In this document: in pieces, positions 6,162 through 35,241 of the stretch
Layout: each line of letters begins with the position of its first letter
Numbering within the stretch: the stretch's first letter is position 1
Assembly (NCBI GenBank): GCA_001816475.1
Contig: MHCC01000001.1
Location: 12,622-76,621, forward strand
Reading direction: 5' to 3'
DNA: 64,000 bases
Source: Candidatus Blackburnbacteria bacterium RIFCSPLOWO2_01_FULL_40_20
GTDB lineage: Bacteria > Patescibacteriota > Microgenomatia > UBA8517 > UBA10165
Program-made: the position numbers and the translations under genes
The notes under the pieces: model-generated
Database searches by the model: none
The model's input: the letters and a program-made list of their open reading frames with translations, nothing else
What the model was told of the DNA's origin: nothing

Positions 6162-6210
<49 letters not shown>

Positions 6211-6254
6211 CTCGCTTAACGCGTTAGCTTGCGGAACAGATCTCGCAAAAAATA

Positions 6255-6440
6255 CAACGTATTTTTTGCTCAAAACCCAAAATACGAAATCCTAAATTCG
6301 AAACAATATCTAAATTCTAAATTCAAATAATTAAACGTTTTGAATTTTAGGATTTTTAGATTTTGAATTTGTTTCGTGCTTCGATATTCGTGCTTTGAAT
6401 TTCTCGCAAAGAATGTATTCTTTGCGAGACCTATCCCAAG
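6255..6440 (-). repeat. AT-rich ~185-nt expansion segment inside the 16S (E. coli ~840 region)
   Basis: Inserted between GTAAACTATG... and GCTAACGCGTTAAGC. Self-complementary halves (AAATCCTAAAATTCAAAACG ... CGAATTTAGGATTT) predict a long hairpin. Built from AAATTCAAAAT-like units similar to the intergenic GAAAATT iterons. Confidence 0.5.
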
Positions 6441-7560
6441 CGAGCATAGTTTACGGCTAGGACTACAGGGGTCTCTAATCCCTTTCGCTACCCTAGCTTT
6501 CGTCTCTCAGCGTCAGAATCTTTCTAGATGTTCGCCTTCGCCGTCGGTGTTCCTCGTAATATCAACGGATTTAACCCCTACACTACGAGTTCCAACATCC
6601 CCGAAAGATCTCAAAGTTCACCCGTATTCTCCGATATCCCAGAGTTAAGCTCTGGACTTTAACAGAAAACGTGGCGGACCGCCTACAGACTCTTTACGCC
6701 CAATAAATCCGGACAACGCTTGCACCCTCCGTATTACCGAGGCTTCTGGCACGGAGTTAGCAGGTGCTTATTCTACAACCTGTATGATTGTCAAAAGGAG
6801 TTTAAGACCCGAAGGCCTTCTTCCTCCACGCGGCGTCGCGGGATCAGACTTGCGTCCATTGTCCACGATTCCCAGTTGCTGCCACCCGTAGGTGTATGAG
6901 CCGTGTCTCAGTCTCATTCTGGGGGGCCGTGCTCTAACACCCCCTACCCGTTATAGCCTTGGTAGGCCGTTACCCCACCAACTAGCTGATAGGCCGCCGG
7001 CTCTTTCTTCGGTGGACCGTTAAGTCCTTTGCTCTTGCGAGATTATGCGGTATTACCCCCGCTTTCGCGGGGCTATCCCCCACCAAAGAGTAGATTCCGA
7101 CGTGTTACTCAGCCGTCTGCCGCTATCCCGACTTGCGTCGGAATCGCTCGACTTGCATGCTTAAAGCGCGCCGCTAGCGTTCGTCCTGGGCCAGGATCAA
7201 ACCCTCAAAAAAAATTGACATGATCAACTCCGATTTACATCGGAGCAACCATGGGTTCCCAGTTACATTTTGAATGTCAAAGAGCAAATTGCAACGCAAT
7301 TTACGATGCACCCACCGATAAATCTTGGCACGAGGCGTGTACGAATAGTACCCGCAAGCCGAGTGCGAAGATAAGGCGGGAAGGTACGCATGGTCTCTTT
7401 AAACCAAAAATCCACCACATGGCGGATTAAACAAGCTTTTTAGGCTTACTGGCTTACTCTTTTCCCATGTGTTTGAAAAGTATACTCGATTCCCTATCAA
7501 TAGTCAACCATCCGTTTAGTGTAAACACATATTTGCAAATACATATATAATAGTGTTGAA

Positions 7561-9191: not shown

Positions 9192-9755
9192 TTAGTCGAC
9201 GACTTGTTGGGCGGGATAGATCGTGTAGGTATACCGGATCAATCCGGTTTTACCATAAATAACGGCAATGTCGATTTTGCCGGTAAGTGCCCCACCATCC
9301 TTCCCGTTGTGATTCCCAGGATCCCGTAGGCTTACGACCTGGCTGTTGAGCAGCTGAGCCAACTCGCCAACTGAAAGGTTGCTCCCATTCGGATTTTGGG
9401 TTACACCAGTCCACTGGTATCGCGGGCGAAGCGTAAGAACAACGTCATTGCCACCGTTTACAGGTGCAACCGGACCAATGACTACAACAAGGCTTGCCCT
9501 ATCTTCCCCGGTCCCCTTTCCAACAAACGAGAACGTTTGGCCCGACGGGTCGGTGTATGATACGTCGCCTGTTGAGACAACGATCGAGTTCCCGTCTTCT
9601 GTCCAAAGGCCGTAAGGACTCGGGTCGGAACTCGCGTCAGGTGAACCAACCGACGAATAGTGGAATGTCGGAAATCCGCCTCCTGCCGAGGTCGTTGACG
9701 AGAAACCGACAAAAAGAGCCAGCACCATTGCAACGATCGAAACCAGAATCTTCAC
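9192..9755 (-). CDS. secreted hypothetical protein (signal peptide, Gly/Thr/Ser-rich), GC-rich gene
   Basis: N-terminus MKILVSIVAMVLALFVGFSSTTSA. GC content well above neighbours. Confidence 0.55.
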   Translation of the reverse strand: MKILVSIVAMVLALFVGFSSTTSAGGGFPTFHYSSVGSPDASSDPSPYGLWTEDGNSIVVSTGDVSYTDPSGQTFSFVGKGTGEDRASLVVVIGPVAPVNGGNDVVLTLRPRYQWTGVTQNPNGSNLSVGELAQLLNSQVVSLRDPGNHNGKDGGALTGKIDIAVIYGKTGLIRYTYTIYPAQQVVD

Positions 9756-22416: not shown

Positions 22417-23178
22417 TTATTTCAAGGCTGCCTCCATTAACTGCGCCACGGTTAAGGACGATACTGCTCCACTTATTACCCAAGCATTACCCCGCTCGTC
22501 AAGCAAGAAATTTGCAGGAGTCCCGTTGACTTGAGCTTCTAAACCACCATCCGAATCTTCTTTTACCTTTTGGGTAGTTGCACCACTGTCCAAACATTTC
22601 TGGAAGGCAGTTTTGTTCAAGCCTAATTCAATTGCAATTTTAGGAAGTTGGCTTGCGTCAAGTCCGTTGTTTGCTGGCGTAACCTCAAAAACTTTATCAA
22701 TGTATGACCAAAAGACATCTTCTCCGCCGAGCTGCGAAGCACACTCTGCCGCAGCTGCCTCAGGTCGAGCTTTTGAATGAAGTGAATCAAGTGGAAAATG
22801 ACGATAAACCCAACGCACCTTTCCATCGTAATCAGCAAGCATTTTTTGCAAGACCGGGTGCATTTGCTTGCAAAACGGACATTCAAGATCTGAGTACTCA
22901 ATCCAAGTTAACTTTGCGTCTTTTGAGCCTTTAATGTGATCTTTGTTGGTAATTGGCGGAAGATTTAGTGTATCTGCCTTAATCGGAGAAGGAATAGATG
23001 GCCGCGCAGGTGGATTTGCGGCGTTTGCACCTGCAACATCCCCACCGTTCTTGTTTTCAAGGTATTGTACGCGCTGCCAAAGAACACCCAAGAAAAAAGT
23101 GCCAACCAAAACACCTGCTATTCCAACTGGTATGAGTATGCTTTTAACAGTATTATTCATATACGATTTAATTTTCAA
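22417..23178 (-). CDS. membrane-anchored DsbA-like thiol:disulfide oxidoreductase
   Basis: N-terminal TM helix, thioredoxin-fold CPFC active site (LECPFCKQMHP). Confidence 0.7.
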   Translation of the reverse strand: MKIKSYMNNTVKSILIPVGIAGVLVGTFFLGVLWQRVQYLENKNGGDVAGANAANPPARPSIPSPIKADTLNLPPITNKDHIKGSKDAKLTWIEYSDLECPFCKQMHPVLQKMLADYDGKVRWVYRHFPLDSLHSKARPEAAAAECASQLGGEDVFWSYIDKVFEVTPANNGLDASQLPKIAIELGLNKTAFQKCLDSGATTQKVKEDSDGGLEAQVNGTPANFLLDERGNAWVISGAVSSLTVAQLMEAALK

Positions 23179-23185
23179 TTTTCAA

Positions 23186-23210
23186 TTCCGATCCTATCGG
23201 AATCAATAAC
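23186..23210. promoter_or_regulatory. palindrome AATTCCGATCCTATCGGAATC with flanking (C)AATTTTC iterons (copy 2)
   Basis: Lies in the trxB-dsbA intergenic region. Heptamer units attttcaattttcaatt on one side and tgaaaattgaaaattgtaaattgaaaatt on the other. Confidence 0.4.
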
Positions 23211-23304
23211 CAATTTACAATGAATTTTCAAATTCTAATTTTCAAACTGTTTGGAACTTGATAATTGGGATTTGATTGAAAATTGAAAATTGTAAATTGA
23301 AAAT

Positions 23305-24300
23305 TTATTTGTGTTCCATTAACCACTTCTCAACGTCTAAGGCTGCCATGCAACCAAAAGCAGCCGCCGTCACCGCCTGTTTGTAGTGGTAATCGTGAAC
23401 ATCTCCTGCAGCAAAAACCCCCTCAACGCTTGTCTTTGTACGATCAAAAACTTTGATATACCCTTTCTCGTCCAAATCAATTTCACCTTTGAAAATATTT
23501 GTTGCTGGAGTATGGCCTATCGCAACAAATATACCATCAATTGGAAACTCTACAACTTCTTTCGTTTTATTGTCCCTTATTTTTACCCCTACTACCCTTA
23601 CTTCCCCTATCACATCCACTATCTCACGGTTTAATAACAGCTTAATTTTTGGGTCTTTTGAGACCTTTTCTTGCATTATTTTTGAAGCCCTAAATTCATC
23701 TCGTCTGTGAACTATTGCTACTTCGGCGGCAAACCTTGATAAGACCAATGCCTCCTCCATTGCAGAGTCTCCACCCCCAATAACAATAATGTTTTTATCC
23801 CTAAAAAATGGGGCATCGCAAGGAGCGCAAGAAGATACACCGCGACCTATCAACTTTTGCTCGTTGGGCAACCCAAGCCATGTGGTTTGGGCACCAGTTG
23901 CAATAATTACAGACCTTGCTTTGTATTCTTTGTTTCCAGCCCATGCAGAAAACTCGCCAACATTCTTAAAAGCAACTTTCTCAACGTCTTCAAGTACAAT
24001 TATTGCGCCAAACCTTTCTGCTTGTTTGCGTATCTTGTCCATGAGCTTTGGCCCCATGATTCCCTCAGGAAACCCTGGGAAATTTTCAACTTCAGTTGTC
24101 AACATCAATTGCCCACCCCAAGAAGTACCTCCAATAACGACAGTAGAAAGAGCGGCTCGCGTTGTATAAATAGCAGAAGTTAACCCCGCGGGTCCCGATC
24201 CAATGATCAAAACATCAAAGACTTCGCCAGACCCACGAGTCATACTTGACCCATTAGACATACTCATCTCAAGTTTGCCCTCCAGTTTGTTCCCCTTCAT
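23305..24300 (-). CDS. trxB: thioredoxin-disulfide reductase
   Basis: FAD-binding IIGSGPAG, redox-active CAPCD and NADPH-binding IGGGDSAMEEA motifs. Confidence 0.85.
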   Translation of the reverse strand: MKGNKLEGKLEMSMSNGSSMTRGSGEVFDVLIIGSGPAGLTSAIYTTRAALSTVVIGGTSWGGQLMLTTEVENFPGFPEGIMGPKLMDKIRKQAERFGAIIVLEDVEKVAFKNVGEFSAWAGNKEYKARSVIIATGAQTTWLGLPNEQKLIGRGVSSCAPCDAPFFRDKNIIVIGGGDSAMEEALVLSRFAAEVAIVHRRDEFRASKIMQEKVSKDPKIKLLLNREIVDVIGEVRVVGVKIRDNKTKEVVEFPIDGIFVAIGHTPATNIFKGEIDLDEKGYIKVFDRTKTSVEGVFAAGDVHDYHYKQAVTAAAFGCMAALDVEKWLMEHK

Positions 24301-24520
24301 TTGGCACTGTTGGATTAGCAGCCGGTTGCTCTGCAGGTGCTTGCCCTAAACCGCTCTGGTTCGGGGTAGCGGATGATGTCGGTTGAGTCACCGCTGGTGC
24401 AGATGGTATCTCAGTAATTGACGACACAGCAGGTTGTGCTGGTTGTGCTGGTTGTGCAGGTTGAGGCTGCGCAGCTGGTGCTTGTCCTGGGTTTACTGGT
24501 TGTTGATCTTGTGGATTCAT
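24269..24520 (-). CDS. low-complexity Pro/Gln/Ala-rich ORF overlapping the trxB start (doubtful)
   Basis: Encoded by a 9-bp tandem repeat GGTTGTGCT x3 (PAQPAQPAQ); GC-rich; different frame from trxB. Confidence 0.2.
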   Translation of the reverse strand: MNPQDQQPVNPGQAPAAQPQPAQPAQPAQPAVSSITEIPSAPAVTQPTSSATPNQSGLGQAPAEQPAANPTVPNEGEQTGGQT

Positions 24521-24674
24521 TAAAACATATCACCCCCTAACTCACGAAATTTGAAATTTTAAATTTTAAATTTGAATTCAATTTGAAAATCACAATTTTA
24601 AATGTTTAAAAATTGAAAATTGAGATTTTGGATTTCATTGAAAATTTTAAATTGAAAATTGAAAATTGCAAAAG

Positions 24675-24992
24675 CTACGCTTTTGCTAAAAGGTCTTCAA
24701 ATGGTTTTCTTCCTCCGAATCCGATTTGTCGCCCTACTTCTTTTCCGTCTTTGAATAAAATTGTTGTGGGAATAGACATAACTTGGAGGGCTTGTGCGCT
24801 TGCAGGATTTTTATCTACATCAATTTTAACAAAATCTATCTGGCCTTCATATTCTTTTGAGAGCTCCTCAAGAATGGGCCCTGCGAGTCGGCAAGGCCCG
24901 CACCAAACAGCATGCAAATCCACAAGCACCGGGGTCTTGTTTTCCGTCACTTTTTGCCTAAAATCTTGGTCTGTTACGTCAATTAAAGCCAT
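24675..24992 (-). CDS. trxA: thioredoxin
   Basis: WCGPC active site, 105 aa. Confidence 0.85.
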   Translation of the reverse strand: MALIDVTDQDFRQKVTENKTPVLVDLHAVWCGPCRLAGPILEELSKEYEGQIDFVKIDVDKNPASAQALQVMSIPTTILFKDGKEVGRQIGFGGRKPFEDLLAKA

Positions 24993-25094
24993 CGCTCTTT
25001 ACTGCTCGTCTAGCCTATCACAAAAGGGGGGATTGGAGTCAAGTAGTGTTTTCACGGATGCAATTTTCCAACACGCCAAAAAGAGGAAATTCCC

Positions 25095-27344
25095 TTACTT
25101 CCCTAATCCAACCCTTTTCAACAACAATGAATTTGAAACAACTGAAACTGAAGACATTGCCATGGCAGCTGAGGCAAAGATGGGGCTAAGCAGTATTTTT
25201 GCGAACGGATATAAGGCACCCATCGCCACAGGAATCAAAATAACGTTATATCCAAACGCCCAAATCAAGTTCATCCGAATTGTTCTCATTGTTTTCCGTG
25301 ACAGTTCAATCGCCCGCGCAACAGAGCGCAAATCTTTGTTAACCAAGGTTATACTTGCTGCCTCAATTGCCACATCCGTTCCCGTTCCCATTGCAATCCC
25401 GATGTCAGCTGCCGCCAGCGCCGGTGCGTCGTTTATCCCGTCCCCCACCATTGCAACAACTTTCCTCTCGGCTTGAATTTTCCTAACTTCTGCTTCTTTC
25501 CCGTCCGGCAAAACTTCCGCTAAAACACGTTTAATCCCAACTTGCCCGGCAATAGCCTCAGCCGTCCTTTCGTTGTCTCCGGTTATCATCACAACTTCAA
25601 TTCCCATTTTTTGCAAAGCTGCAACACCTTCTTTCGCGCTATCCTTAATTTGATCTGCAACCGCAATTAATCCTGTCAATTCCCCGCCAACTCCAAGCAT
25701 CATAACTGTCTTTCCTTCCCGCTCAATTTTTACCAATCCCATTTCCTCTTCCTTCTCTATCTTTATCTTCTCTCTTTGCATTAGTTTTATATTTCCCAAT
25801 ACAACCCGTACGCCTCCAATCTCTCCTACGACCCCGAACCCCGCTATCGCCTTAAACCCTTCGACTCCGCTCAGAACAAGCCCTTCTTCCTCTGCCTTTT
25901 TGACAATAGCCTCGGCCAGCGAGTGCTCCGAACCCTTCTCCAAAGACGCTGCCATTTTCAAAACATACCCCTTATCTCCCTTAGCCTTAATTCCCACCAC
26001 ATCTGTTACCTCTGGTTTTCCTCGCGTTAAAGTTCCTGTCTTGTCAAAAATAACAGTATTGATTTTGAGTGCAGTCTCCAGACTCTCTGCGTCTTTTATC
26101 AAAATCCCGTTTTCTGCTCCCTTACCTGTTCCAACCATAATTGCAGTTGGCGTTGCCAGCCCCATTGCGCAAGGGCAAGCGATAATCAACACGGCAATCG
26201 CGTTTAGCATTGCAAAAAGAAAAGTAGGTGAAGGACCGAAGTTGTACCAAACAACAAAAGTTAAGATAGAAAGCATAATAACAACAGGAACGAAATATGA
26301 AGAAACTGAATCAACCAACTTTTGTATCGGTGCTTTGCTTGCTTGAGCATCAGCAACAAGCTTAATAATTTGAGCAAGCATAGTTTCCTGTCCAACTTTT
26401 GAGGCCTTAAAGGTAAATGTACCGGTCTTGTTAAGCGTCGCCCCAATCACAACATCGCCTTTTGTCTTGTCAATTGGCAGGCTTTCACCCGTTACCATAG
26501 ACTCATCTATCGAGGATTCTCCATCTTCAATAATCCCGTCCGTTGGTATCTTCTCTCCTGGCCGCACGCGAACAATGTCGCCCGCCACTACTTGCCCGAT
26601 AGGCACATCCATTTCTTTACCACTCTTTAAAACTCTGGCAGTTTTGGCTTGTAATCCAATAAGTTTTTTGATGGCCTCCGAAGTCCCTGCCTTTGCACGA
26701 GCTTCAAAATACCTGCCCAACAAAATTAAACCAATCACAACGGTTGAAACGTCAAAATATGGCATAACTTCAAAACCTGCTCTTTCTAAAAATTGTGGGA
26801 AAAGTGTTGCAACAACAGAAAATGAATAAGCAGCAGTCGTGCCAATGGCAATGAGTGTATCCATATTGGCAGTCCTGTGGCGAAGTGCGGGGATAGTGCC
26901 CTTGTAAAACTGTAACCCTGGCCAAAATTGAACAATGGTGGCCATTACGAGTTGAAAATAAAAGTCCTTCAAAAACAAAGGCGCTGTGTCCACCAAAACC
27001 GGAAAGCTTCCCCAAACAATCAATCCAGCAAATACTAAACTGACAATCACATCGCGAAGAAGCCTGCGAAGCTCTCTGGACTTTTCCTCTTTATCTTTAT
27101 CTTTATCTGCCTCCATCTCTGTCTCTTGCTTTATCCCATACCCAATATTCGATACCGCTGAAAAAATTTGCTCATCCGTTGTCTTTTGGGGGTCAAACGC
27201 TACTGTTGCCCGTTCTGTAACTAAGCTAACCTGGGCCGAGAATACTCCATCCACCTTCTCCAAAGCCTTTTCAATAAGCCTCACACAAGATGCACAATGC
27301 ATTCCTTTGACGGAATAAGTTCGATTAATTAGTTTTTTCTCCAT
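25095..27344 (-). CDS. copA: copper-translocating P1B-type ATPase
   Basis: N-terminal HMA domain GMHCASC, CPC transmembrane motif, DKTGTLT phosphorylation site, GDGINDAP hinge. Contains a CTTTAT hexamer repeat encoding DKDKDKEEK. Confidence 0.9.
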
Positions 27345-27409
27345 GTTTTGATTGTTCTAACAGGCTCAATTTTTAATTTGAAATTTTAAACATTAAAAAT
27401 TTATATTTC

Positions 27410-27432
27410 ATTGAAAATTGATTCCGATAGGA
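27410..27432. promoter_or_regulatory. palindrome GATTCCGATAGGATCGGAATTG with GAAAATT flanks, upstream of copA (copy 3; loop inverted relative to copies 1-2)
   Basis: Same 7-bp arms with the spacer AGG instead of CCT. Confidence 0.4.
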
Positions 27433-27445
27433 TCGGAATTGAAAA

Positions 27446-27805
27446 TTATTTTACTATTATCTTCCCCCGGTACATATTCATGCCGCATGAATATGTATAT
27501 TCGCCCGTCTTTTGAGGATTTATTTCAACAGTAACCTTTTCACCCAAGGGCAAATCGCGCTTTATCTTAAAATCTCCTAAAACAACTTCGCTCAAACAAT
27601 CATTTTCATCCTTGCGAGTAAAGTTAATTATTGTAGTCTTGCCACGAGGAACGGTAATAATGTTTGGTGTATATCCACCATCTACTGTTATGTCAACAGA
27701 TCCGGAAGCCTTGACTTCTTTTTCCTTTTTGCCAAGGAAAAACCAATAAACAAACCCAATTCCCATAACGCCAATAATGGTAACGACTAATTTATCAATA
27801 CTCAT
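27446..27805 (-). CDS. cupredoxin-like domain protein (membrane-anchored)
   Basis: N-terminal TM helix. C-terminal EYTYSCGMNMYRGKIIV resembles the Cys/Met metal-binding motif of cupredoxin_1-type domains. The same motif type is at the C-terminus of ORF 29243..30253. Confidence 0.55.
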   Translation of the reverse strand: MSIDKLVVTIIGVMGIGFVYWFFLGKKEKEVKASGSVDITVDGGYTPNIITVPRGKTTIINFTRKDENDCLSEVVLGDFKIKRDLPLGEKVTVEINPQKTGEYTYSCGMNMYRGKIIVK

Positions 27806-27815
27806 AATCTCCTTG

Positions 27816-27854
27816 CCCCTAACGTACTCCGATCAGATCGGAGGAAGTGGGGTA
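27816..27854. repeat. 39-bp hairpin repeat, copy 2 (identical to 3737..3775)
   Basis: Overlaps the stop codon of the small ORF 27847..27996. On the minus strand it ends GGGGCAAGGAGATTATG, supplying the Shine-Dalgarno sequence and ATG of the cupredoxin gene. Confidence 0.7.
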
Positions 27855-27996
27855 TCTATTTCTTGTTTATCTGCTTCCACAAATAAACTGACAAAAGAAT
27901 AAGGGTTATTATCACCAGAATCCAAACCAAGGATCCAAGGAATGCAAAAAGCCCAAACCCTCCTCCCCAGTTCATCATGTTTCCCCAATTTCCATA
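27847..27996 (-). CDS. 49-aa Gly/Trp/Met-rich small membrane protein (not in supplied ORF track)
   Basis: My translation of the minus strand: MMGYGNWGNMMNWGGGFGLFAFLGSLVWILVIITLILLSVYLWKQINKK. Sits immediately downstream of csoR. The supplied ORF 27833..28051 is a different frame. Confidence 0.45.
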
Positions 27997-28013
27997 TCCC
28001 ATCATATTGTCTC

Positions 28014-28301
28014 TCACCCCACTTTCTTGAATATCTCAACCATCTCATCAATTACTTCTTCCCTGCCTTTTTTAACTGCGTCAGTTGTGCAAGTTTTAAG
28101 GTGATTTTCTAAAATTAAATTATCAACTCCACGAAGTGCTTTTTGGACTGCTTGTGATTGGTGAAGTACGTCAACACAATACTCCCCCTCACCAACCATT
28201 TTTATAACCTTATTAAGATGTCCCCGGACGATTTTAAGTCGGTGCAATATTGTCCTTTTTACGGACGGGTCTCGCGGAATTCCTCTTGGCATGTTTTTCA
28301 T
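28014..28301 (-). CDS. csoR: CsoR/RcnR-family metal-sensing transcriptional repressor
   Basis: RLKIVRGHLNKVIKMV...EYCVDVLHQSQAVQKAL...H...C carries the Cys-His-Cys sensing triad. The probable true start is the second Met (MPRGIP). Confidence 0.8.
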   Translation of the reverse strand: MKNMPRGIPRDPSVKRTILHRLKIVRGHLNKVIKMVGEGEYCVDVLHQSQAVQKALRGVDNLILENHLKTCTTDAVKKGREEVIDEMVEIFKKVG

Positions 28302-28316
28302 CCCCTAGAGGGGGAT
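28300..28316. promoter_or_regulatory. candidate CsoR operator: perfect palindrome ATCCCC-TAGAG-GGGGAT abutting the csoR start
   Basis: 6-bp inverted arms separated by 5 nt. A GGGG/CCCC-containing inverted repeat is the general architecture of CsoR operators. A matching ATCCCC-N5-GGGGG site precedes the second csoR gene. Confidence 0.4.
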
Positions 28317-28589
28317 TAAGTAATTATACCATTAAAGACAAGAAAATCAATATTATTGTCATCCTGAGGAATGAAACGACGAAGGATCTCTCGCAAATGC
28401 GAGATGAAATATATGCTAAACAACTACCAAGTAGAGCAGAGATTCCTCCTCCGCCGAGCGAGATCGGAACGACGAGGGATATATGAAAAAAACTTGGGGT
28501 AGGCCGAAATATTTGCTTCTAGCAAAATACTCCGGACTACCCCGAACGAAGTTTAGAACGTGGTCCCGATCAAATCGGGGCTTTACGTT

Positions 28590-28838
28590 CTAGGTCAGCG
28601 ACAGCTGTCGCGAACGCCCTCGCGGCGGGTCATGCCGACTCTCAGGAAGCTGCTGCATTGCTTCCTGTCGTTTTGTTGTTTGGGCACATTCTTGCTCTTT
28701 AAGGACTCCGCGAAGGTCGTCGACCAACTTCTCTTCATTCTTGAACGAAAGCTCGGTTACTCGCTCAACCCCCGCTTTGTCAAGATGCCATTGTATGACT
28801 CTCGTCACATTCTCAATGATATCTCTTCTCAAGAACAA
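28590..28838 (-). CDS. hypothetical protein in GC-rich insert
   Basis: 82-aa ORF inside the ~670-bp high-GC block 28560-29230. The plus-strand ORFs here look like wrong-frame artefacts (Cys/Arg-rich). Confidence 0.3.
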   Translation of the reverse strand: MFLRRDIIENVTRVIQWHLDKAGVERVTELSFKNEEKLVDDLRGVLKEQECAQTTKRQEAMQQLPESRHDPPRGRSRQLSLT

Positions 28839-28862
28839 GCCACACCTCCTTTTTTTTGCAGA

Positions 28863-29219
28863 CTACTTCAGAACGTCAGCCAAATCGTGTGCCATCTCCA
28901 CTTTTTGCAGCGGACAAAGGTCGACCGGGCGCACTGTAGCAATGCAACGATTCCGTGCCTCACGATCCAAGTGCGACTGGATGACCTCGATCGCCTCGCG
29001 TGTCTTGTCCGAAACTGCCGGTGCGACTGGCGCAGCAGGCTCGGGCGGAGCAGCGACAGCGTGCAACACCTGATCCTGCCATCTGATCCCCCCACGGGGT
29101 TTGGTAACCGCAACCTTTTCCCGTGCCTTCTCGAGAACCGCTGTTGGTGACACTTTCTCCTCCTCGCGCGAAATATTTGGTTTATTAAAGATCCCTAGAC
29201 CTAACCCAGAGTATAGCAA
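28863..29219 (-). CDS. hypothetical protein in GC-rich insert (Pro/Ala-rich linker)
   Basis: 118-aa ORF with a protein-like composition, unlike the overlapping plus-strand frames. Confidence 0.35.
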   Translation of the reverse strand: MLYSGLGLGIFNKPNISREEEKVSPTAVLEKAREKVAVTKPRGGIRWQDQVLHAVAAPPEPAAPVAPAVSDKTREAIEVIQSHLDREARNRCIATVRPVDLCPLQKVEMAHDLADVLK

Positions 29220-29242
29220 GTTAGACCAAAAAAGTAAAATTT

Positions 29243-30253
29243 ATGGTAAAATTAAAGTTCATGGAATCCTTCTGGCTTGCCTTCCTTACCGGTCTTACAA
29301 CAGGCGGGTTTTCCTGCCTTGCCGTGCAAGGCGGGCTTTTAGCCTCAGCAATCTCCGGAAAAGAAACACAATCAAAACAAATTGTAGGATTGTTTTTGAT
29401 TGCAAAAATTATTGCCTATACCTTTTTGGGGGCTGGATTGGGACTTGTCGGATCTGCCTTGACCATTTCCGCTCAAACCCAAGGCTGGATGCAAATTTTT
29501 GCCGGAGTGTTTATGTTGTTAACTGCAGCAAGACTTCTAGACATCCATCCAATTTTTAGATATTTCGTTATCCAACCCCCACGCTTTGTATATAAATTTT
29601 TACGCAAAACCAGCAAAAGTGATGCATATTTCACGCCATTACTGCTCGGGTCGCTTACTGTTCTTATCCCCTGTGGAATCACCCAAGGCATGATGATTCT
29701 TGCAGTTTCATCTGGTAATCCTGTTACGGGCGCTTTAATAATGTTTTCATTTATCCTTGGTACTAGCCCAGTTTTCTTTGCCTTGGGCATTGCCACATCA
29801 CAACTTTTAAAAAGAAAGATCTTTGCGATTTTTACAGCTGGTGTAATTGCCATACTTGGTGCAATGGCTATAAACAGTGGCCAGGTTTTGCGGGGTTCAA
29901 TTTACACTTTTCAAAACTTCTATAAAGCTGCAACAACTGACGTGTATGGATCCGGGGGCAGTGTTGCCGGTGTAAACGCAGAAGGAAAACAAGAAGTTAC
30001 AATTGATGTTTTGAACAACGGATACAATTCCTCAAGCGATGTCTTAAAAGCTGGCGTTCCAGTAAAACTAAGCCTAGTAACAAACGGCACAAGAAGTTGT
30101 ACCCGCGCATTTACAATCCCAGCCTTGGGTGTTTCAAAAGTACTCCCGCAAACAGGTAGCGAAACAGTCGAATTTACGCCAGCAAAGGCGGGATCCTTGG
30201 CTTATTCTTGCGGGATGGGAATGTATGGAGGAACATTCCAGGTGATAAATTAA
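29243..30253 (+). CDS. polytopic membrane protein with Cys-containing TM motifs fused to a C-terminal cupredoxin-like domain (putative metal transporter)
   Basis: TM1 GLTTGGFSCLAVQGG and a later LIPCGITQG motif. C-terminal soluble domain ends SLAYSCGMGMYGGTFQV, paralleling SCGMNMYRGKI of ORF 27446..27805. Confidence 0.6.
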   Translation: MVKLKFMESFWLAFLTGLTTGGFSCLAVQGGLLASAISGKETQSKQIVGLFLIAKIIAYTFLGAGLGLVGSALTISAQTQGWMQIFAGVFMLLTAARLLDIHPIFRYFVIQPPRFVYKFLRKTSKSDAYFTPLLLGSLTVLIPCGITQGMMILAVSSGNPVTGALIMFSFILGTSPVFFALGIATSQLLKRKIFAIFTAGVIAILGAMAINSGQVLRGSIYTFQNFYKAATTDVYGSGGSVAGVNAEGKQEVTIDVLNNGYNSSSDVLKAGVPVKLSLVTNGTRSCTRAFTIPALGVSKVLPQTGSETVEFTPAKAGSLAYSCGMGMYGGTFQVIN

Positions 30254-30268
30254 CCCAATTTTCAATTT

Positions 30269-30292
30269 TTAATTCCGATAGGATCGGAATTG
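30269..30292. promoter_or_regulatory. palindrome AATTCCGATAGGATCGGAATTG with AATTTTC/GAAAATT flanks, upstream of copZ (copy 4)
   Basis: Identical arms to copies 1-3. Confidence 0.4.
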
Positions 30293-30325
30293 AAAATTTC
30301 AAATTTGTTATAGATCAACAAAAGC

Positions 30326-30577
30326 ATGAACAACGGTCAAGATAATAAACCAAAAGTACTCAGATTTTCCATCAAGGGTATGCATTGTCCGTCTTGCGCC
30401 ATATTAATCGAAAGCGATCTGGAAGACGCGGGTGTCAAAGTTTCTTGTAGTTACGCAAAACAACTCCTAGAAGTTGAGACCCCCTTTCGCTCGCAAGCTT
30501 CGGAGGGGCAAGCAGAAACAGAAAAAACTGTTAAGAAAGTTGTTGAAGATTTGGGATATAAGATAGAGGCTTTGTAA
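30326..30577 (+). CDS. copZ: heavy-metal-associated domain copper chaperone (CopZ-like)
   Basis: GMHCPSCA metal-binding motif in an ~80-aa ferredoxin-like ORF. Confidence 0.8.
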   Translation: MNNGQDNKPKVLRFSIKGMHCPSCAILIESDLEDAGVKVSCSYAKQLLEVETPFRSQASEGQAETEKTVKKVVEDLGYKIEAL

Positions 30578-30579
30578 AA

Positions 30580-31506
30580 CTACACCCCACAGCTTGATCC
30601 CCCGTTTGTTGCAGGAGGTAAAAAATTATTAGCAGACAACCAATCGTGAACTTTCTTCCACCCGGAAGATGAGGAATATTCTCGTCCTAACACTGTACGC
30701 GCAGGAACATCTTTCCAAGCCGTGCCTTCTTTCGCTTCAAAGTAGCCCGCAAGTTCGATATATTGGTTAGAAAACCAATAGGAGTTCATCGCTTTTAATG
30801 CGTCAAATATTTGGTCAGCGGTTGCGCCTTGTGAAACCATCAGCTCAGCCAAACCTAGAGCCGCCATACCGTGGTTGCAGTCAGGAAATGCAGTAGAGTT
30901 GTTGCAACACGGCCTGAAAACCCCATTTGCAACTTCCTCAACTATTTTTTGTTGATCTGCAGATATAGGAATAATTTGAAACTTTGAATAGTAATTAACA
31001 GCTTTTGTTTTTGAAACTGTCCAACCACCGGTTGATGCAAAATTCCCCACCTTTGCACGACCTCCCTCAACCATTACTCCTTCATCTAAAATTTTATTTT
31101 TATTTGCTAACCCCAATGCCCAAAAGAGGTTAAGTAAAAAGTGAGCGTTACCTGCGTTAACTGTTATTTCCTGGTCGCGCCCTAATGTTAATATTTCCAA
31201 CTGCTCGTCCGTAAGAGCATTGGCGCCTTGATAAATTGCCTTAAATTTTTCCAGGTCTATCGTTCCTGATTGAATAAGTTTTGGCCCGATGTCGCCAAAC
31301 TTAACACCCAGTTTCACTCCTTCTGCCGGGACAACTTGCTGCGCAAGAGCTTGCACGTCGTAAGTTGAAGTTTGGGTTTGTACTTGAGCTTTTTTCTTTA
31401 CCGACACATTAATGTCCCAACTCTGAAGAAATTTTGGAATATAAAAACCTGCGGCAAAAACAAAAACGGCCACAAGCGCGATTGCAATAATTCCTTTTAT
31501 GTTCAT
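30580..31506 (-). CDS. membrane-anchored extracytoplasmic hypothetical protein with Cys/His cluster
   Basis: N-terminal TM helix. RPCCNNSTAFPDCNHG motif suggests metal or disulfide chemistry. No family assigned. Confidence 0.5.
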   Translation of the reverse strand: MNIKGIIAIALVAVFVFAAGFYIPKFLQSWDINVSVKKKAQVQTQTSTYDVQALAQQVVPAEGVKLGVKFGDIGPKLIQSGTIDLEKFKAIYQGANALTDEQLEILTLGRDQEITVNAGNAHFLLNLFWALGLANKNKILDEGVMVEGGRAKVGNFASTGGWTVSKTKAVNYYSKFQIIPISADQQKIVEEVANGVFRPCCNNSTAFPDCNHGMAALGLAELMVSQGATADQIFDALKAMNSYWFSNQYIELAGYFEAKEGTAWKDVPARTVLGREYSSSSGWKKVHDWLSANNFLPPATNGGSSCGV

Positions 31507-31766
31507 TTTAAAAATCGATTGTACACCTTAGCAAACGCCCAACCAGATACCCAAGTTACAACGGCCATGGTTATTGCGCCTAGAATTAACGACCCGCTGC
31601 TTGCATAAACATCCCAAACATTAGCTAAGTTTACACCATGGAACCAGCTTTGAAAAACTAATTTTGCAATGTCTGGAACCAAGATAATCGCAAGGTAACA
31701 AATAACGGAAACTCCAACACTTACGGCAGCTAAAGCATTTGCTAGAGCGACTTCGTTAAGTTTCAT
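31503..31766 (-). CDS. small membrane protein
   Basis: 87 aa with two to three hydrophobic segments; overlaps the downstream gene by 4 nt. Confidence 0.45.
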   Translation of the reverse strand: MKLNEVALANALAAVSVGVSVICYLAIILVPDIAKLVFQSWFHGVNLANVWDVYASSGSLILGAITMAVVTWVSGWAFAKVYNRFLK

Positions 31767-31780
31767 TAGACCACCCCATT

Positions 31781-32395
31781 TTATTTAATTTTCTCCAACT
31801 GATTAATCAATTGGTTATTTCTCACTCCCATTTTTGGATCATCCCACCAATATGCAACTTGCCCATCTTTGTTAACAATTACAAATGTGTGCCCCGGATA
31901 TCCGCCTTTGTGCATCGAAGAAGGCGCATAAAGTGTTTCATAGGCAGCTGATGTGGATTTTGTGTTATCAAATAAAACCTTTGCTTTTGCCAACTCGGGC
32001 ATTTTGTCCAATGCTTTCTTCCAGTTGTCCGGAACATCAACTATTACTGAGTACGTCTCAACTCCGTCTTTGCTAAACCTTTCATCCTCGCCCAATGCTT
32101 TCATCTGATCCCAACAAGCAGGATAACAAATCAATCCTTCATTAAAAAACAACAAAACAGTTTTTCCGCGAAGGTCGGATAATTTGACTGTATTCCCTTC
32201 ATAGTCTTTAAGTTCAAAATCCGGGGCTTGTTTGCCAACCATACCACCTTCAACTGACTTTCGCCCCTCCGGGTTTGGACCAAACTTTTGTGCTCCAACA
32301 ACAATGCCGCCAAGCAGGGCTATTGTTATTACAACTACAATAATTATAAATTTGTTATTCATCTTGCTCCCCCTGTTAATATATTTGTTACCCAA
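31781..32395 (-). CDS. membrane-anchored thioredoxin-fold redoxin (TlpA/ResA/peroxiredoxin-like)
   Basis: N-terminal TM helix and a thioredoxin-like fold, with the unusual CYPAC (CxxxC) motif in place of CxxC. Confidence 0.6.
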   Translation of the reverse strand: MGNKYINRGSKMNNKFIIIVVVITIALLGGIVVGAQKFGPNPEGRKSVEGGMVGKQAPDFELKDYEGNTVKLSDLRGKTVLLFFNEGLICYPACWDQMKALGEDERFSKDGVETYSVIVDVPDNWKKALDKMPELAKAKVLFDNTKSTSAAYETLYAPSSMHKGGYPGHTFVIVNKDGQVAYWWDDPKMGVRNNQLINQLEKIK

Positions 32396-33129
32396 GCCGC
32401 ATAAGTATTAACCATCACTTTGTAATCCGACCTTACCTGTAATCCCCCAGTTAATGCCAGGTAAGTAATTAAAGCGCTCATTGCTATGAAAATAATTCCT
32501 GACAATAGATTAGCAATTGTTATATTCACTTCTTTCCCAAATATTTTGTAGGTTATTCCACGCCTGACAAGCATAAACTTTTGAGTGATCTTTGTTTTGT
32601 CAATTGCCCAAGAAAGTATAAAAAGCGGAGCGACCATGCCAAGAACATAGGCAATCGCATAAAGCCCACCTAAAAGTGTTGAACCTGGCAATGCAGATAA
32701 GGCAACAATCCCCGCCAACACTGGTGCACAACAAGAGGTAGCAAATCCTGAAAACACACCCAGCATAAAGATAGAACCAAAGGTAAATTTACCGGGTGTC
32801 GTAACGCTTGTGTGCCAAGGAAGAGAAAAGCTTCTGCCTGTTAAAATCACAACGCCAAGTACAAAAAGGAATATTGCCCCAAGTATATATATTTGATCAT
32901 GGTACATTTCAAATATCTCTCCTAAAAACCCAGCACCAAGCCCAATTGGTAAAAAGACAACGGCCAGCCCCAAAGAAAATACCCCAGTCATCCCCAAGAC
33001 TGTTTTTCTTTGCGAAAAAATAGAACCCATGTAAGAAGGCAAAAGAACGGTAATGCAACAAGGCGCAAACAACGCCGCGATACCAGCAACGAATGAGGCT
33101 ATAAACGAAGCAATGGGCAAAATAGTCAT
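32359..33129 (-). CDS. ccdA: CcdA/DsbD-family transmembrane thiol-disulfide electron transporter
   Basis: Begins MTILPIASFIASFVAGIAALFAPCCITVLLP (paired Cys in TM1). Six predicted TM segments. The listed ORF's 25-codon upstream extension is probably not translated. The start overlaps the csoR2 stop (ATGA). Confidence 0.7.
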   Translation of the reverse strand: MTILPIASFIASFVAGIAALFAPCCITVLLPSYMGSIFSQRKTVLGMTGVFSLGLAVVFLPIGLGAGFLGEIFEMYHDQIYILGAIFLFVLGVVILTGRSFSLPWHTSVTTPGKFTFGSIFMLGVFSGFATSCCAPVLAGIVALSALPGSTLLGGLYAIAYVLGMVAPLFILSWAIDKTKITQKFMLVRRGITYKIFGKEVNITIANLLSGIIFIAMSALITYLALTGGLQVRSDYKVMVNTYAAWVTNILTGGAR

Positions 33130-33386
33130 GTTCTTTTGTAAAGTTCTACTAACTCTTCCAACACCTTCTCTCCTTTTCCATCCTTTATATCCTTTACAAC
33201 ACAACCATAAAGATGGCCTTGAAGAACCATCCCGTCAACATTTTTTAAAGCAGACTGAACAGCTTTTGATTGATGAATTACGTTTGGGCAATAACAGCCT
33301 TCGCGAACCATAGCAATCACCTTTTTAAGATGTCCCTCAGCAATTGCCAACCGTTTTAGTGTAAGCTCTTGAACTTTTGAATCCAT
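33126..33386 (-). CDS. csoR: CsoR/RcnR-family metal-sensing repressor, second paralogue
   Basis: LKRLAIAEGHLKKVIAMVREGCYCPNVIHQSKAVQSALKNVDGMVLQGHLYGC carries C, H and C at the sensing positions. Confidence 0.8.
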   Translation of the reverse strand: MDSKVQELTLKRLAIAEGHLKKVIAMVREGCYCPNVIHQSKAVQSALKNVDGMVLQGHLYGCVVKDIKDGKGEKVLEELVELYKRT

Positions 33387-33387
33387 A

Positions 33388-33410
33388 CCCCTACCCCCTG
33401 ATGGGGATAT
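33388..33410. promoter_or_regulatory. candidate CsoR operator ATCCCC-ATCAG-GGGGTA (minus sense) immediately upstream of csoR2
   Basis: Same ATCCCC-N5-GGGGG architecture as the site at 28300. On the minus strand GGGGTAGGGGT then supplies the RBS before ATG. Confidence 0.35.
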
Positions 33411-33450
33411 TCAAATCATACCAAACAACTTTTAATTGTCAACAAGAAGA

Positions 33451-35241
33451 TTATCTCAACTCCATCAAAAACCTTGCCACACTAACATGATCTTTAATGC
33501 GCAAATCTTTCCCGGCGTCTAAAATAAATGCAGACAAATATTGACACAAGGAATAAGAAGAAAAAGATGAGTTTCTTATAACTTCCGCCCTGTATGCCCT
33601 GGTAAAAGCATTAATTAACTGTTGAGGGTCAAGTGCCTTAGCGTGAGTATTGCGTTCGCATGCCAAATTAATTAATCGATAAACAAGCTCGCCAAACTCC
33701 CCCTTCTCTCTTCCCTCAAGCCGAATTTCGTTTCCAGAAAAGTAATTGTTCTTAACAGGCGTATACCAATAAACAGCCTTGCCACCCACCAATTCTGCCC
33801 CTAAAATGGCTTTTGAATCTGGCAATAAAAGTCTATATTCCCCTATAACAGAAGCAACAGCCTCCTTAAATCTTCCAACAATGCGAACATACAAACCAGG
33901 GAGATCAATTCCTTCATGGTTCATTCCCGATTTTGTCCTGATTTGTACAAATCTTTCAAATCCATCTTCAAATTTAGAATTACTGCGTACGAGATCCAAT
34001 ACGAGTGGCATAGCATTTTTCCCAACAGTTGAAACCAGGTACCTCTTAAATTCTACAAACTTGGTTTCCATCGCCAATTCTACAACTATAGTTGAAGCAA
34101 AATTACCACTTGTTTTAACTATCCGACGAATTTCTTCACTTGTTGGCAGCTCTTGTATGCTAACAATACTTTCTACTATCTGTCGAAATTTTTGAGCAGT
34201 ACTAGTTTCTTTTGGGCCATTTCCATTTTGCAAAACTCTGCCGCTTTTTACCCACTGAGGGAAGGTCTTTGGGAAACTTCCAACAAGAAAATCCATGTAT
34301 TTTTGGGCTTCCGGCCAATTTCGGTCTTTAACAAATTCGGCAACTGGCGTAATCAAACCTGTAAAACCAGATTGTCCGGGGATATATCTTTTCCTTGTAC
34401 TCATCAGACTTTTCAATAGTTTGACTTGATCTTGCTTAAGACCAACGCCTTGTGCTACATCGTCCATTAAGCGCTGACAAAGCCTTAAGAACCCCTGATG
34501 GATCCTTAAGCGATCTATTTTTGGCCCTAAACGATCGTCAAAATACGCTGGAAATTTGCCTGCCTCAACACCTCCAAATATTAATGCGTACTCAGCAAGT
34601 TCTCGCGCAGAACCCAACGAGCTTTGGCCATCGCCCCAACGCGCGAAATTTCCTATTAAATGGTCTTTTGCGACTTCGATCAAACAAACAAGTGCCATTA
34701 TTTTTGCCTCAGGCGAGTTTGTATCAATCTTCCCGGCTTCAACAATCTCAGTAAAAAGCTTGCTCAAGTCCAAGTATTTTTCGTGAATCGATATCGTTTT
34801 TTGTGGAACATAAAAACAAGGTAGATAAGGCAAAATACCTAAGTCTGGATTTATAAAATAAACTGCTTCAACCGCCTTGGGTACATGAACTAAACGGCCT
34901 CCAGGAGCTAAGTACATAATCTCGCCTTCTATCTTTTTTAAACGGCTTTCAGGAAGTGCTAGCTCTTTTTGTGACCTGATCCCCTCAATACCCTCATTGA
35001 TTTCTTGAGCGTGTAAGGGTTGTTGCTGCAATAGCACTTCTTTTATTCGTTCCAGTGCTAAATCTTCGCATTCTTTGCAGTATTCAAAAACAGGATCTAG
35101 CGACTCGCTTGGTGCAAGATTTTTTCTGTGAAGTACTTGGAGCTGGTCTTTAAGCCCTTGCCGGGACAGAACATGCTCTTTTGTTATCATCGGCCACCGA
35201 TTATACCCAGATCTTACTTTTTTAGCAATGTCCAGGCACAT
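33451..35241 (-). CDS. large hypothetical protein (596 aa), no recognisable domain
   Basis: Long uninterrupted ORF with ordinary amino-acid composition. Overlaps the MGMT gene's end, so probably co-transcribed. The true start is probably the internal MITKEHV. Confidence 0.55.
   Translation of the reverse strand: MCLDIAKKVRSGYNRWPMITKEHVLSRQGLKDQLQVLHRKNLAPSESLDPVFEYCKECEDLALERIKEVLLQQQPLHAQEINEGIEGIRSQKELALPESRLKKIEGEIMYLAPGGRLVHVPKAVEAVYFINPDLGILPYLPCFYVPQKTISIHEKYLDLSKLFTEIVEAGKIDTNSPEAKIMALVCLIEVAKDHLIGNFARWGDGQSSLGSARELAEYALIFGGVEAGKFPAYFDDRLGPKIDRLRIHQGFLRLCQRLMDDVAQGVGLKQDQVKLLKSLMSTRKRYIPGQSGFTGLITPVAEFVKDRNWPEAQKYMDFLVGSFPKTFPQWVKSGRVLQNGNGPKETSTAQKFRQIVESIVSIQELPTSEEIRRIVKTSGNFASTIVVELAMETKFVEFKRYLVSTVGKNAMPLVLDLVRSNSKFEDGFERFVQIRTKSGMNHEGIDLPGLYVRIVGRFKEAVASVIGEYRLLLPDSKAILGAELVGGKAVYWYTPVKNNYFSGNEIRLEGREKGEFGELVYRLINLACERNTHAKALDPQQLINAFTRAYRAEVIRNSSFSSYSLCQYLSAFILDAGKDLRIKDHVSVARFLMELR

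Follow-up and report, generated by a model that had tools for sequence, protein, structure and literature searches.

A copper-defence gene cluster of a Candidatus Blackburnbacteria genome contains a widespread, unnamed cysteine-rich protein family that travels with copper pumps

Extracytoplasmic copper handling is understood mainly in Gram-negative models, such as Cus, CueO, CueP, Scs and CopC/D. In monoderm bacteria we know of only a few lipoproteins involved in it, and in the candidate phyla radiation (CPR) we know of nothing. In a literature search for Patescibacteria with CsoR and CopA, none of the top-ranked papers listed mentioned Patescibacteria. Here we describe positions 22417-33386 of a 64-kb stretch of contig MHCC01000001.1 from Candidatus Blackburnbacteria bacterium RIFCSPLOWO2_01_FULL_40_20; the whole analysed stretch is called the window. 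The region is a genuine copper-defence gene cluster of mostly known part types, in which a cop operon is combined with an envelope thiol system. It also encodes F308, a 308-aa member of a widespread, unnamed family of Cys-rich, predicted surface proteins that travels with copper pumps.

The closest precedent for the mechanism proposed below is, by analogy, the Scs/CueP system of Salmonella. The DsbD-family protein ScsB has an Ig-like CX3C domain (ScsB-alpha), is thought to be fed by TrxA, and reduces ScsC and ScsD (PMC10907172). Copper is bound by ScsB as well as ScsC, which deliver Cu(I) to CueP, a Cys-dependent protein; thiol relay and Cu(I) transfer coexist in this system (PMC10907172). The second related system, from Streptococcus pneumoniae, is CupA-CopA (PDB 4F2E/2MRY; work of Fu et al. 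2013 cited in PMC5552934, PMC5646241 and PMC7558416). CupA is a membrane-tethered chaperone feeding CopA and a described part of the cop operon (PMC5646241, PMC7558416), and according to reviews it is confined to a few streptococci. The third is COG2836, a group of HMA-DsbD_2 proteins belonging to the Firmicutes CsoR meta-regulon (PMC4938975).

Genes were identified from translations of open reading frames (ORFs) and Pfam matches, and NCBIfam was also run on the window ORFs. A preliminary description, made from the letters alone, had listed 13 genes of a copper/thiol homeostasis island. All of them were present at or near the positions it gave and in the families it named, and the island as such was borne out. 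Profile searches placed no ORF in a well-characterised non-metal family, the outcome it had named as contrary to its proposal. The list was incomplete, as a DUF5676 gene had been missed. With this gene included, the region consists of three tightly packed units with the following genes.

22417-23178, minus strand: DsbA-like protein, membrane-anchored, thioredoxin fold, CPFC, predicted N-in/C-out (Pfam Thioredoxin_4 2.6e-20, DSBA 3e-16)
23305-24300, minus strand: TrxB, thioredoxin reductase, start codon uncertain (Pfam Pyr_redox_2 2e-49)
24675-24992, minus strand: thioredoxin with WCGPC, closing the csoR1-copA unit (Pfam Thioredoxin 2.8e-25)
25095-27344, minus strand: CopA with one N-terminal HMA domain (Pfam HMA, E1-E2_ATPase, Hydrolase (HAD))
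27446-27805, minus strand: CupA-type protein, transmembrane (TM) helix and cupredoxin domain (Pfam Cupredoxin_1 4e-23)
27856-28017, minus strand: Met/Gly/Trp peptide of 53 aa (GTG start) or 49 aa (ATG)
28014-28301, minus strand: CsoR paralogue 1 (Pfam Trns_repr_metal 2e-24)
29243-30253, plus strand: DsbD_2-cupredoxin fusion (Pfam DsbD_2 1.5e-28, Cupredoxin_1 1.3e-11)
30326-30577, plus strand: CopZ-like HMA protein with MHCPSC (Pfam HMA 2.3e-8)
30580-31506, minus strand: F308, 308 aa (no Pfam or NCBIfam family)
31503-31766, minus strand: DUF5676 protein with two TM helices (Pfam DUF5676 1.6e-14)
31781-32395, minus strand: CYPAC redoxin, probable start 32362 (Pfam AhpC-TSA 3.1e-20, Redoxin)
32359-33204, minus strand: CcdA-like membrane protein, probable start M26 at 33129 (Pfam DsbD_TM, PF02683, 5e-8)
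33126-33386, minus strand: CsoR paralogue 2 (Pfam Trns_repr_metal 3.7e-20)

Unit 1 (minus strand) contains csoR1, the peptide gene, cupA, copA and trxA and is closed by a terminator-like hairpin (24686-24668, minus strand); trxB and then the dsbA-like gene come next. Unit 2 (plus strand) contains the fusion gene and then the HMA gene. Unit 3 (minus strand) contains csoR2, the CcdA-like gene, the redoxin gene, the DUF5676 gene and F308. Given the probable starts at 33129 and 32362, the genes of unit 3 overlap or are separated by at most 14 bp, and the stop codon of DUF5676 overlaps the start codon of F308. The clustering is not due to chance, because the same gene sets recur around F308 homologues in dozens of other genomes.

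F308 with its CC-type CcdA partner is the most novel element of the island and had been given too little weight before. Of the two ORFs for which profile searches had been suggested, 29243-30253 was matched by DsbD_2 and Cupredoxin_1, and 30580-31506 (F308) was assigned to no family. At least 4902 homologues of F308 were found; the source name, where one is given, is 'hypothetical protein', and Pfam domains are absent from all of them. Clustered at 50% identity, the family accounts for 701 of 1.84 billion representatives. Of 185,579 species genomes, at least 585 contain a relative, and these are mostly CPR/Patescibacteria and Chloroflexota, with one DPANN archaeon. The closest labelled relatives are from Microgenomates/Woesebacteria, and P0001 is a 99%-identical F308 copy. 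Three elements are invariant or nearly so: R-P-C-C-x-N-x-T-x-F-x-D-C-N-H-G, A-S-T-G-G-W and the C-terminal G-G-x-C-G-V. Of 268 members, 261 retain the core PCC-x7-9-DC-x-HG and 254 have a Cys within the last eight residues. In the window protein these elements read R-P-C200-C201...D-C210-N-H212-G, with C306 in the GGxCGV tail.

The surroundings of F308 were surveyed in 80 species-level loci (+/-10 kb, phmmer with the window proteins). CopA was present in 48 of the 80 loci, and in 23 of the 30 that have at least 8 kb on both sides. For comparison, if a genome of about 1 Mb has one or two copA genes, chance would be expected to place CopA in a few per cent of loci, a figure that is estimated rather than computed. 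The CC-type CcdA-like protein was found in about 43 loci, often directly upstream of F308, and DUF1573 in 36. The counts for the other genes were 23 for CsoR, 18 for the fusion, 17 for CupA, 16 for DUF5676, 13 for the DsbA-like protein and 12 for the redoxin. Overall, the identified neighbours were predominantly copper- or thiol-related.

Several gene orders illustrate this linkage. Locus L005 reads CsoR - DUF1573 - CcdA-like - F308 - CupA - CopA, and close variants were seen in L001-L003. On three long contigs, the orders found were this one, HMA <- fusion / DUF1573 - CcdA-like - F308 - two-component system - DUF5676 - CupA - CopA, and CsoR - DUF1573 - SfLAP - 52 aa (CPHC) - DUF1573 - long F308 - CopA. 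In loci where the window proteins matched nothing upstream, other neighbours of F308 were seen there: classical single-Cys CcdA, which F308 follows in Chloroflexota loci, DUF411/CopG, Met-rich secreted proteins, DUF1573 and rhodanese. The Ig-like domain DUF1573 bears a CxC motif, of which selenocysteine variants exist (PMC9312934, PMC13188914); these variants argue for a reactive site. BlaR1-like M48/M56 peptidases ending in CxxxxxCxxxC are encoded directly upstream of long-form F308 in four loci, which suggests a regulatory alternative to CsoR of the BlaI/CopY-BlaR type:

L008, 7010-7957: BlaR1-like peptidase gene
L021, 3124-3930: BlaR1-like peptidase gene
L033, 2067-2870: BlaR1-like peptidase gene
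L059, 8560-9363: BlaR1-like peptidase gene

The long forms of F308 carry additional domains. An N-terminal domain of 4-5 TM helices with a membrane-embedded G-C-x-V-C-G was found in 24 of the 80 loci (about one third). A CcdA-like gene lies upstream of 3 of 21 long-form and 20 of 53 short-form F308 genes; an upstream CcdA-like gene and the fused TM CxxC are not mutually exclusive. In P0319 (450 aa), the membrane domain at the N-terminus of F308 is another one, having CPIC within a TM segment and NCC further on. The Cys-bearing TM modules fused to the F308 domain are thus of at least two unrelated kinds. Rhodanese-F308 fusions were also found, behind a signal anchor in P0285 and behind the lipoprotein signal LISGC in P0286. 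At the anchor of short-form F308 (119 homologues), the mean number of Lys/Arg residues (K/R) was 3.15 before the helix versus 1.94 after it. From this bias and the lipobox variant, the F308 domain is predicted to lie outside the membrane.

The rhodanese fusions, together with an Anaerolineales locus (L054) in which a rhodanese gene of its own (9279-9722) immediately precedes F308, could point to a module handling sulfane sulfur or persulfides in a CstR-like response, in which F308 would be a sulfur-transfer or polysulfide protein. The CsoR family does include persulfide sensors, and the CcdA-like protein has a weak NCBIfam match to the rhodanese/DsbD fusion TsoB. However, the rhodanese fusions are 2 of the 10 unusually long F308 representatives scanned, CopA and CupA are the dominant neighbours of F308, and the copper fingerprint C-H-C is complete in both CsoRs, with the His present. 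We consider this explanation very improbable.

The F308 model gave no match with E<0.9 against the PDB with Foldseek, and the F308 profile gave only EF-hand-like noise (E>=0.12) against PDB sequences; no link to CcmH was found by hmmsearch. With hhalign, F308 and two CcmH sequences were aligned in a plausible register at E 0.17. CcmH (PDB 2HL7) is a three-helix domain whose reactive Cys loop joins its first two helices, a layout that F308 may share. In this weak match, RPCCxNsTaFPDCNHGMA is placed on RCPKCQNQDIADSNAPIA, and QGATxxE on QGKSDGE. In contrast to CcmH, F308 has CC-x8-C-x-H rather than LRCxxC, an extra N-terminal domain of about 130 residues and a C-terminal Cys tail, and it has neither a Pfam CcmH match nor a cytochrome c context. 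A CcdA, a ResA-like redoxin and a CcmH-like F308 could in principle make up a thiol pathway of cytochrome c maturation. However, F308 has RPCC-x8-DC-x-HG in place of LRCxxC and no PF03918 match even at E<=1, CxxCH was found in 0 of 51 window ORFs of at least 150 aa, and no Ccm or Res genes were found near F308 in the 80 loci. To our knowledge, CPR bacteria generally lack c-type cytochromes. On the ORF and neighbourhood data this pathway was rejected, and we regard it as scarcely credible.

The other conserved proteins of unit 3 are the redoxin and the CcdA-like protein. The redoxin is a membrane-anchored thioredoxin-fold protein with C90-YPA-C94 and is predicted to be extracytoplasmic. It represents a conserved subfamily: FFNEG-x-M-C-Y-P-[AS]-C is invariant in ten orthologues, bar one CAPC variant, as are S-x-M-H (SSMH) and G-H-[ST] (PGH), and several orthologues have DHHGGG linkers. 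Its nearest structures, among the best 60 of 104 PDB profile matches, are an archaeal Prx-like protein, the pneumococcal Etrx and ResA. The protein matches the AhpC-TSA fold, but the peroxiredoxin motif PxxxTxxC is absent, as FFNEG[LA]MCYPAC lacks Thr at -3 and Pro at -7. Membership of the Sco family is unsupported by sequence, as no PF02630 match was obtained and no Sco was among the same best 60 of 104 matches. The likeness to Sco/SenC is at the motif level only, with CxxxC and two invariant His, one of them downstream before a beta-strand (PGHT[YF]), and extends to the thioredoxin fold, membrane anchor and extracytoplasmic location; unlike Sco, the redoxin groups by sequence with Prx-like proteins and ResA and has no cytochrome oxidase context.

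The 'CcdA' of the preliminary description does belong to the DsbD_TM family, with a match above the family cutoff, but it is atypical in having Cys doublets: FAPCCITVLLPSY in TM1 (APCC) and SCCAPVLAG in TM4. The redoxins always have such a protein as neighbour; these partners share FAPCCIT-x-L-x-P-[ST]-Y in TM1 and CCAPVL in TM4, and the redoxin gene lies immediately downstream of the CcdA-like gene in 7 of 7 loci of this subtype. The doublets are kept in the three CcdA-like subtypes examined; the other two of these precede F308 in many genomes. The doublets sit where CcdA has the single cysteines of TM1 and TM4, and the protein is a putative electron conduit.

By analogy, unit 3 resembles both ScsB -> ScsC/ScsD -> CueP of Salmonella and CcdA -> ResA/CcmG -> CcmH. 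The likeness to Scs/CueP has several parts. Scs is copper-induced, and the island is predicted to be so from its CsoR sites; the DsbD/CcdA-family conduit would in both cases be fed by thioredoxin; both include a DsbA-like protein and, anchored in the membrane, a thioredoxin-fold protein of the TlpA/ResA type; and the end point is a Cys-dependent extracytoplasmic copper-binding protein, CueP or, putatively, F308. The Ig-like CX3C domain of ScsB-alpha is paralleled by the Ig-like DUF1573 (CxC) encoded before the CcdA-like gene in F308 loci. On the other hand, F308 has no sequence relationship to CueP or ScsA, and there is no orthology of the island to ScsA-D. Further differences are the monoderm host, CsoR in place of CpxR/CueR as regulator, the Cys doublets of the window CcdA and the CxxxC of the redoxin.

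This precedent (PMC10907172) also allows another explanation of unit 3 as pure disulfide repair of the Scs/DsbD type, in which CcdA would reduce the redoxin and F308, and these would fix misoxidised surface proteins under copper stress without F308 binding copper. The position of F308 behind classical single-Cys CcdA in Chloroflexota loci, the proximity of the redoxin to ResA/Etrx-type reductases, the CcmH-like character of the F308 domain and the rhodanese fusions all fit such a role. However, F308 has an invariant His beside its Cys cluster and a single-Cys tail typical of metal hand-off sites, the redoxin subfamily has invariant His residues and sometimes DHHGGG linkers, and the linkage is to copper genes (CopA, CupA, CsoR, DUF411) rather than to general oxidative-stress genes. 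Disulfide repair as the whole function is judged unlikely.

The vicinal doublets in TM1 and TM4, kept in the three subtypes examined, raise another explanation, that the CC-type CcdA-like protein is a MerT-like transporter of thiophilic metals, with F308, DUF1573 or the redoxin as MerP-like partner and with Cu(I) or Ag/Hg passing through the vicinal cysteines. The membrane-embedded G-C-x-V-C-G in the 24 of 80 F308 proteins fused to another TM domain would agree with this, as would the related DsbD_2 fusion, which is tied to HMA metal chaperones and not to thioredoxin. However, it makes little sense physiologically for a cell to import copper from a promoter that copper derepresses, while export would duplicate CopA, CcdA-family proteins of known function move electrons, and some F308 genes are paired with ordinary single-Cys CcdA. 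We think such a transporter improbable, more so than pure disulfide repair.

Unit 2 encodes the second membrane element of the island. The fusion joins a six-TM DsbD_2 domain, with Cys25 in TM1 (GGFSC) and Cys143 in TM4 (LIPCG), to a C-terminal cupredoxin domain whose C286...C323-G-M-G-M327 is the same ligand set as in CupA. The multi-TM cupredoxin fusion reported in the preliminary description is thus real, but the CxxC-like TM motifs attributed to it are not present, since TM1 and TM4 have a single Cys each. At least 4366 homologues were found, and all full-length ones among the top 120 have the identical architecture; the Prokaryotic Genome Annotation Pipeline (PGAP) gives them the uninformative name 'sulfite exporter TauE/SafE family protein'. 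In 114 homologues, the mean K/R count was 2.55, 5.70 and 2.75 in loops 1, 3 and 5, versus 0.10, 0.33 and 0.06 in the N-terminus and loops 2 and 4. From this bias, the fusion is predicted to be N-out with six TM helices and with its cupredoxin domain outside. Paralogues of 582-608 aa consist of an HMA domain without signal peptide, an extra TM helix (TM0), DsbD_2, a CupA-like domain, a Gly/Cys-rich linker (e.g. SCGGSGGGGCGCGGG) and a second cupredoxin-like domain. The extra helix is needed to join a cytoplasmic HMA domain to an N-out core, which independently supports the N-out orientation. In each of the loci below, the gene immediately downstream of the paralogue encodes a second CopA, one that has two HMA domains:

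L043, 2260-4008: HMA-TM0-DsbD_2 paralogue
L028, 2900-4726: HMA-TM0-DsbD_2 paralogue
L052, 1019-2791: HMA-TM0-DsbD_2 paralogue
L044, 13743-15548: HMA-TM0-DsbD_2 paralogue
L072, 12806-14632: HMA-TM0-DsbD_2 paralogue

Among the relatives of the fusion, an HMA protein is always fused or adjacent, its gene following that of the fusion. The CopZ-like HMA protein of the window is likely to be the cytoplasmic partner of the fusion, and this constant association would favour hand-off of metal over electrons in unit 2. Like the COG2836 proteins, the window system combines a DsbD_2 membrane domain with HMA, putatively under CsoR. Unlike them, its C-terminal partner is a CupA-like cupredoxin and not DUF2318, and HMA has a gene of its own further downstream, whereas the 582-608-aa paralogues have it fused. 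An outward CupA-like domain on a DsbD_2 module suggests that proteins of the CcdA superfamily could relay metal as well as electrons.

Unit 1 is the cop operon. The CopA translation contains ACPCAMG (CPC), GYNV (YN) and MAMSSVS (MxxSS) besides the HMA domain, and these three motifs identify it as a P1B-1 Cu(I) pump. The 119-aa cupredoxin protein has one N-terminal TM helix followed by a cupredoxin domain (PF13473) of about 100 aa. By phmmer it matched PDB CupA (2mry/4f2e) at 8.6e-22 and the CopA metal-binding domain (4f2f) at 5.8e-8, and its C70 and C107-G-M109-N-M111 aligned with C74 and C111-x-M113-x-M115 of CupA. In 19 homologues, K/R numbered 0-1 before the TM helix (where start codons were clear) and 2-4 in the 12 residues after it, so the soluble domain is predicted to be cytoplasmic, as in the pneumococcus. 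This protein had been singled out earlier as an unusual TM-anchored cupredoxin; the match to CupA makes it a standard cop component of the pneumococcal type, with predicted Cu(I) binding and transfer to CopA. As in S. pneumoniae, the gene lies directly upstream of copA, here with 101 bp from its end to the copA start. The window differs in four respects: its regulator is CsoR and not CopY, its CopA has an N-terminal HMA domain (2.3e-15, with no Cupredoxin_1 match in Pfam) and not a cupredoxin domain, it also has a CopZ-like protein, and it has a second CupA-like domain on DsbD_2 that is predicted to face outward.

In the peptide 27856-28017, an N-terminus rich in Met, Gly and Trp is followed by a single TM helix and a tail with KK; it matched no Pfam or NCBIfam family. 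Homologues adjoin CsoR/CopA in L013, L017, L018 and L028. The tail of the peptide also terminates Met-rich secreted proteins of about 190 aa with MMG repeats (L014 6538-7107, L051 8887-9474, L075 1595-2218), whose genes have the CcdA-like gene on one side and F308 on the other; the peptide of the window resembles a pared-down form of these proteins. The order CopA-TrxA-TrxB-DsbA was also kept in L043. Between trxA and trxB lies a putative ORF of 83 aa (24269-24520, minus strand), which is Pro/Gln/Ala-rich, of low complexity, and overlaps the annotated trxB start; it matched no Pfam or NCBIfam family.

Regulation of the island by copper is predicted from the two CsoR proteins and their upstream regions. 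In the translations, the ligand pattern of CsoR1 is C42...H67-x3-C71 and that of CsoR2 is C33...H58-x3-C62. The C-H-C (x-C-H-C) fingerprint, His included, marks Cu(I)-sensing members of the family. By the PF02583 match and this fingerprint, both paralogues fit the Cu(I)-sensing pattern. Exact CCCCTNNNGGGG (CCCC-N4-GGGG) sites occur only twice in the window, at 28302-28313 and 33395-33406, and both abut csoR start codons:

28300-28350, minus strand: upstream of csoR1, promoter-like site at 28350-28323 (10/12), then the pseudo-palindrome ATCCCCTAGAGGGGGAT at 28300-28316
33385-33442, minus strand: upstream of csoR2, promoter-like site at 33442-33415 (11/12 with TG), the best of the region, then ATACCCCTACCCCCTGATGGGGATA

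These GC-tract pseudo-palindromes, just downstream of the two best-placed promoter-like sites, are predicted CsoR operators. Upstream of the island, a 596-aa ORF follows directly (33451-35241, minus strand) and matched no Pfam or NCBIfam family.

The intergenic region between csoR1 and the fusion gene has features of its own. A segment of about 650 bp (28519-29168) has 52-62% GC versus about 41% in its surroundings and is flanked by the direct repeats CGAAATATTTG[CG]TT at 28505-28518 and 29169-29182. It has two small ORFs on the minus strand (28863-29219 and 28590-28838) with no Pfam match, and looks like a small foreign insertion splitting the divergent promoter region. A CCCCCCACGGGG site at 29088-29099 sits inside this insert; no site of the CsoR type was assignable to the fusion-copZ unit. 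In the AT-rich part, the direct repeat AACGACGA[AG]GGAT occurs at 28375-28387 and 28468-28480, 93 bp apart, with a gtcatcctgaggaatgaaacgacgaaggatctc stretch adjoining it, and may be a small repeat element. Elsewhere in the window, a complete 16S rRNA gene was found at 5643-7212 (minus strand), and 23S and 5S were undetected in all 64 kb; either the rRNA genes are not linked or 23S is situated outside the window.

The observed gene content, families, motif conservation and linkage to CopA and CsoR, with the predicted topologies, lead us to consider it probable, though by no means assured, that the island is CsoR-controlled and couples cytoplasmic Cu(I) efflux to a cysteine-based relay reaching the outer face. 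Copper induction, the direction of transfer, the moving of metal or electrons and the substrate of F308 are what we infer in this scheme. Unit 1 would provide CsoR-type sensing and cytoplasmic Cu(I) efflux, with CupA, tethered to the inner membrane face, feeding the P1B-1 pump CopA. In unit 2, the cytoplasmic HMA protein would pass Cu(I) to the two membrane cysteines of DsbD_2, and these would pass it on to the CupA-like binuclear site at the outer face; less likely, the cysteines would move electrons that keep this outer site reduced. In unit 3, the CcdA-family conduit would take electrons from the neighbouring Trx/TrxB and serve the redoxin and F308 outside. F308 would be the terminal component, with its PCC...DC-x-H cluster and flexible C-terminal Cys either binding Cu(I) expelled by CopA or, at the cell surface, reducing Cu(II) and thiols that copper has oxidised. 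An extracytoplasmic Cu/thiol route, as suggested in the preliminary description, is made plausible by the loop charges of the fusion (114 homologues), the HMA-TM0-DsbD_2 paralogues, the charge bias of F308 (119 homologues) and its lipoprotein variant.

Several points weigh against this relay. Electron conduits do not typically have Cys doublets like those of the CcdA-like protein, which hint instead at transport of metal. The similarity of F308 to CcmH is weak (hhalign E 0.17, no Foldseek and no hmmsearch link), and homology is not claimed. The described CopA partner of CupA has a cupredoxin metal-binding domain, whereas CopA here has HMA. Directly before unit 2 no CsoR-like site was found, and the GC-rich insert disrupts that intergenic region. 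The linkage of Trx/TrxB/DsbA to CopA was met in one other locus only (L043), so this coupling may be lineage-specific.

A broader proposal is offered more tentatively, and we hold it possible without favouring it. F308 and a Cys-bearing membrane partner (CC-type CcdA or a fused TM CxxC) would form an undescribed extracytoplasmic copper system of monoderm CPR and Chloroflexota, with a fold absent from the PDB and a site made of PCC...DC-x-H and the C-terminal Cys. Alongside, HMA, DsbD_2 and the outward CupA-like domain would form an ATP-independent transmembrane Cu(I) relay. If this is true, a CupA-type binuclear site would be present on both membrane faces.

Of the parts noted earlier, CupA is known, and the fusion and the CxxxC redoxin, which had been presented as oddities, are large, conserved and recurrent families, common but uncharacterised. 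What deserves attention is F308 with its Cys-bearing membrane partners, the outward CupA-like domain on DsbD_2, and CupA beyond streptococci. F308 is a conserved unnamed family linked to copper pumps as tightly as known chaperones. CupA-type chaperones, a streptococcal peculiarity in the reviews, were present in the CPR and Chloroflexota loci of this survey and are widespread in both groups. F308, the wide distribution of CupA and the outward CupA-like domain are three leads that can be tested with recombinant domains.

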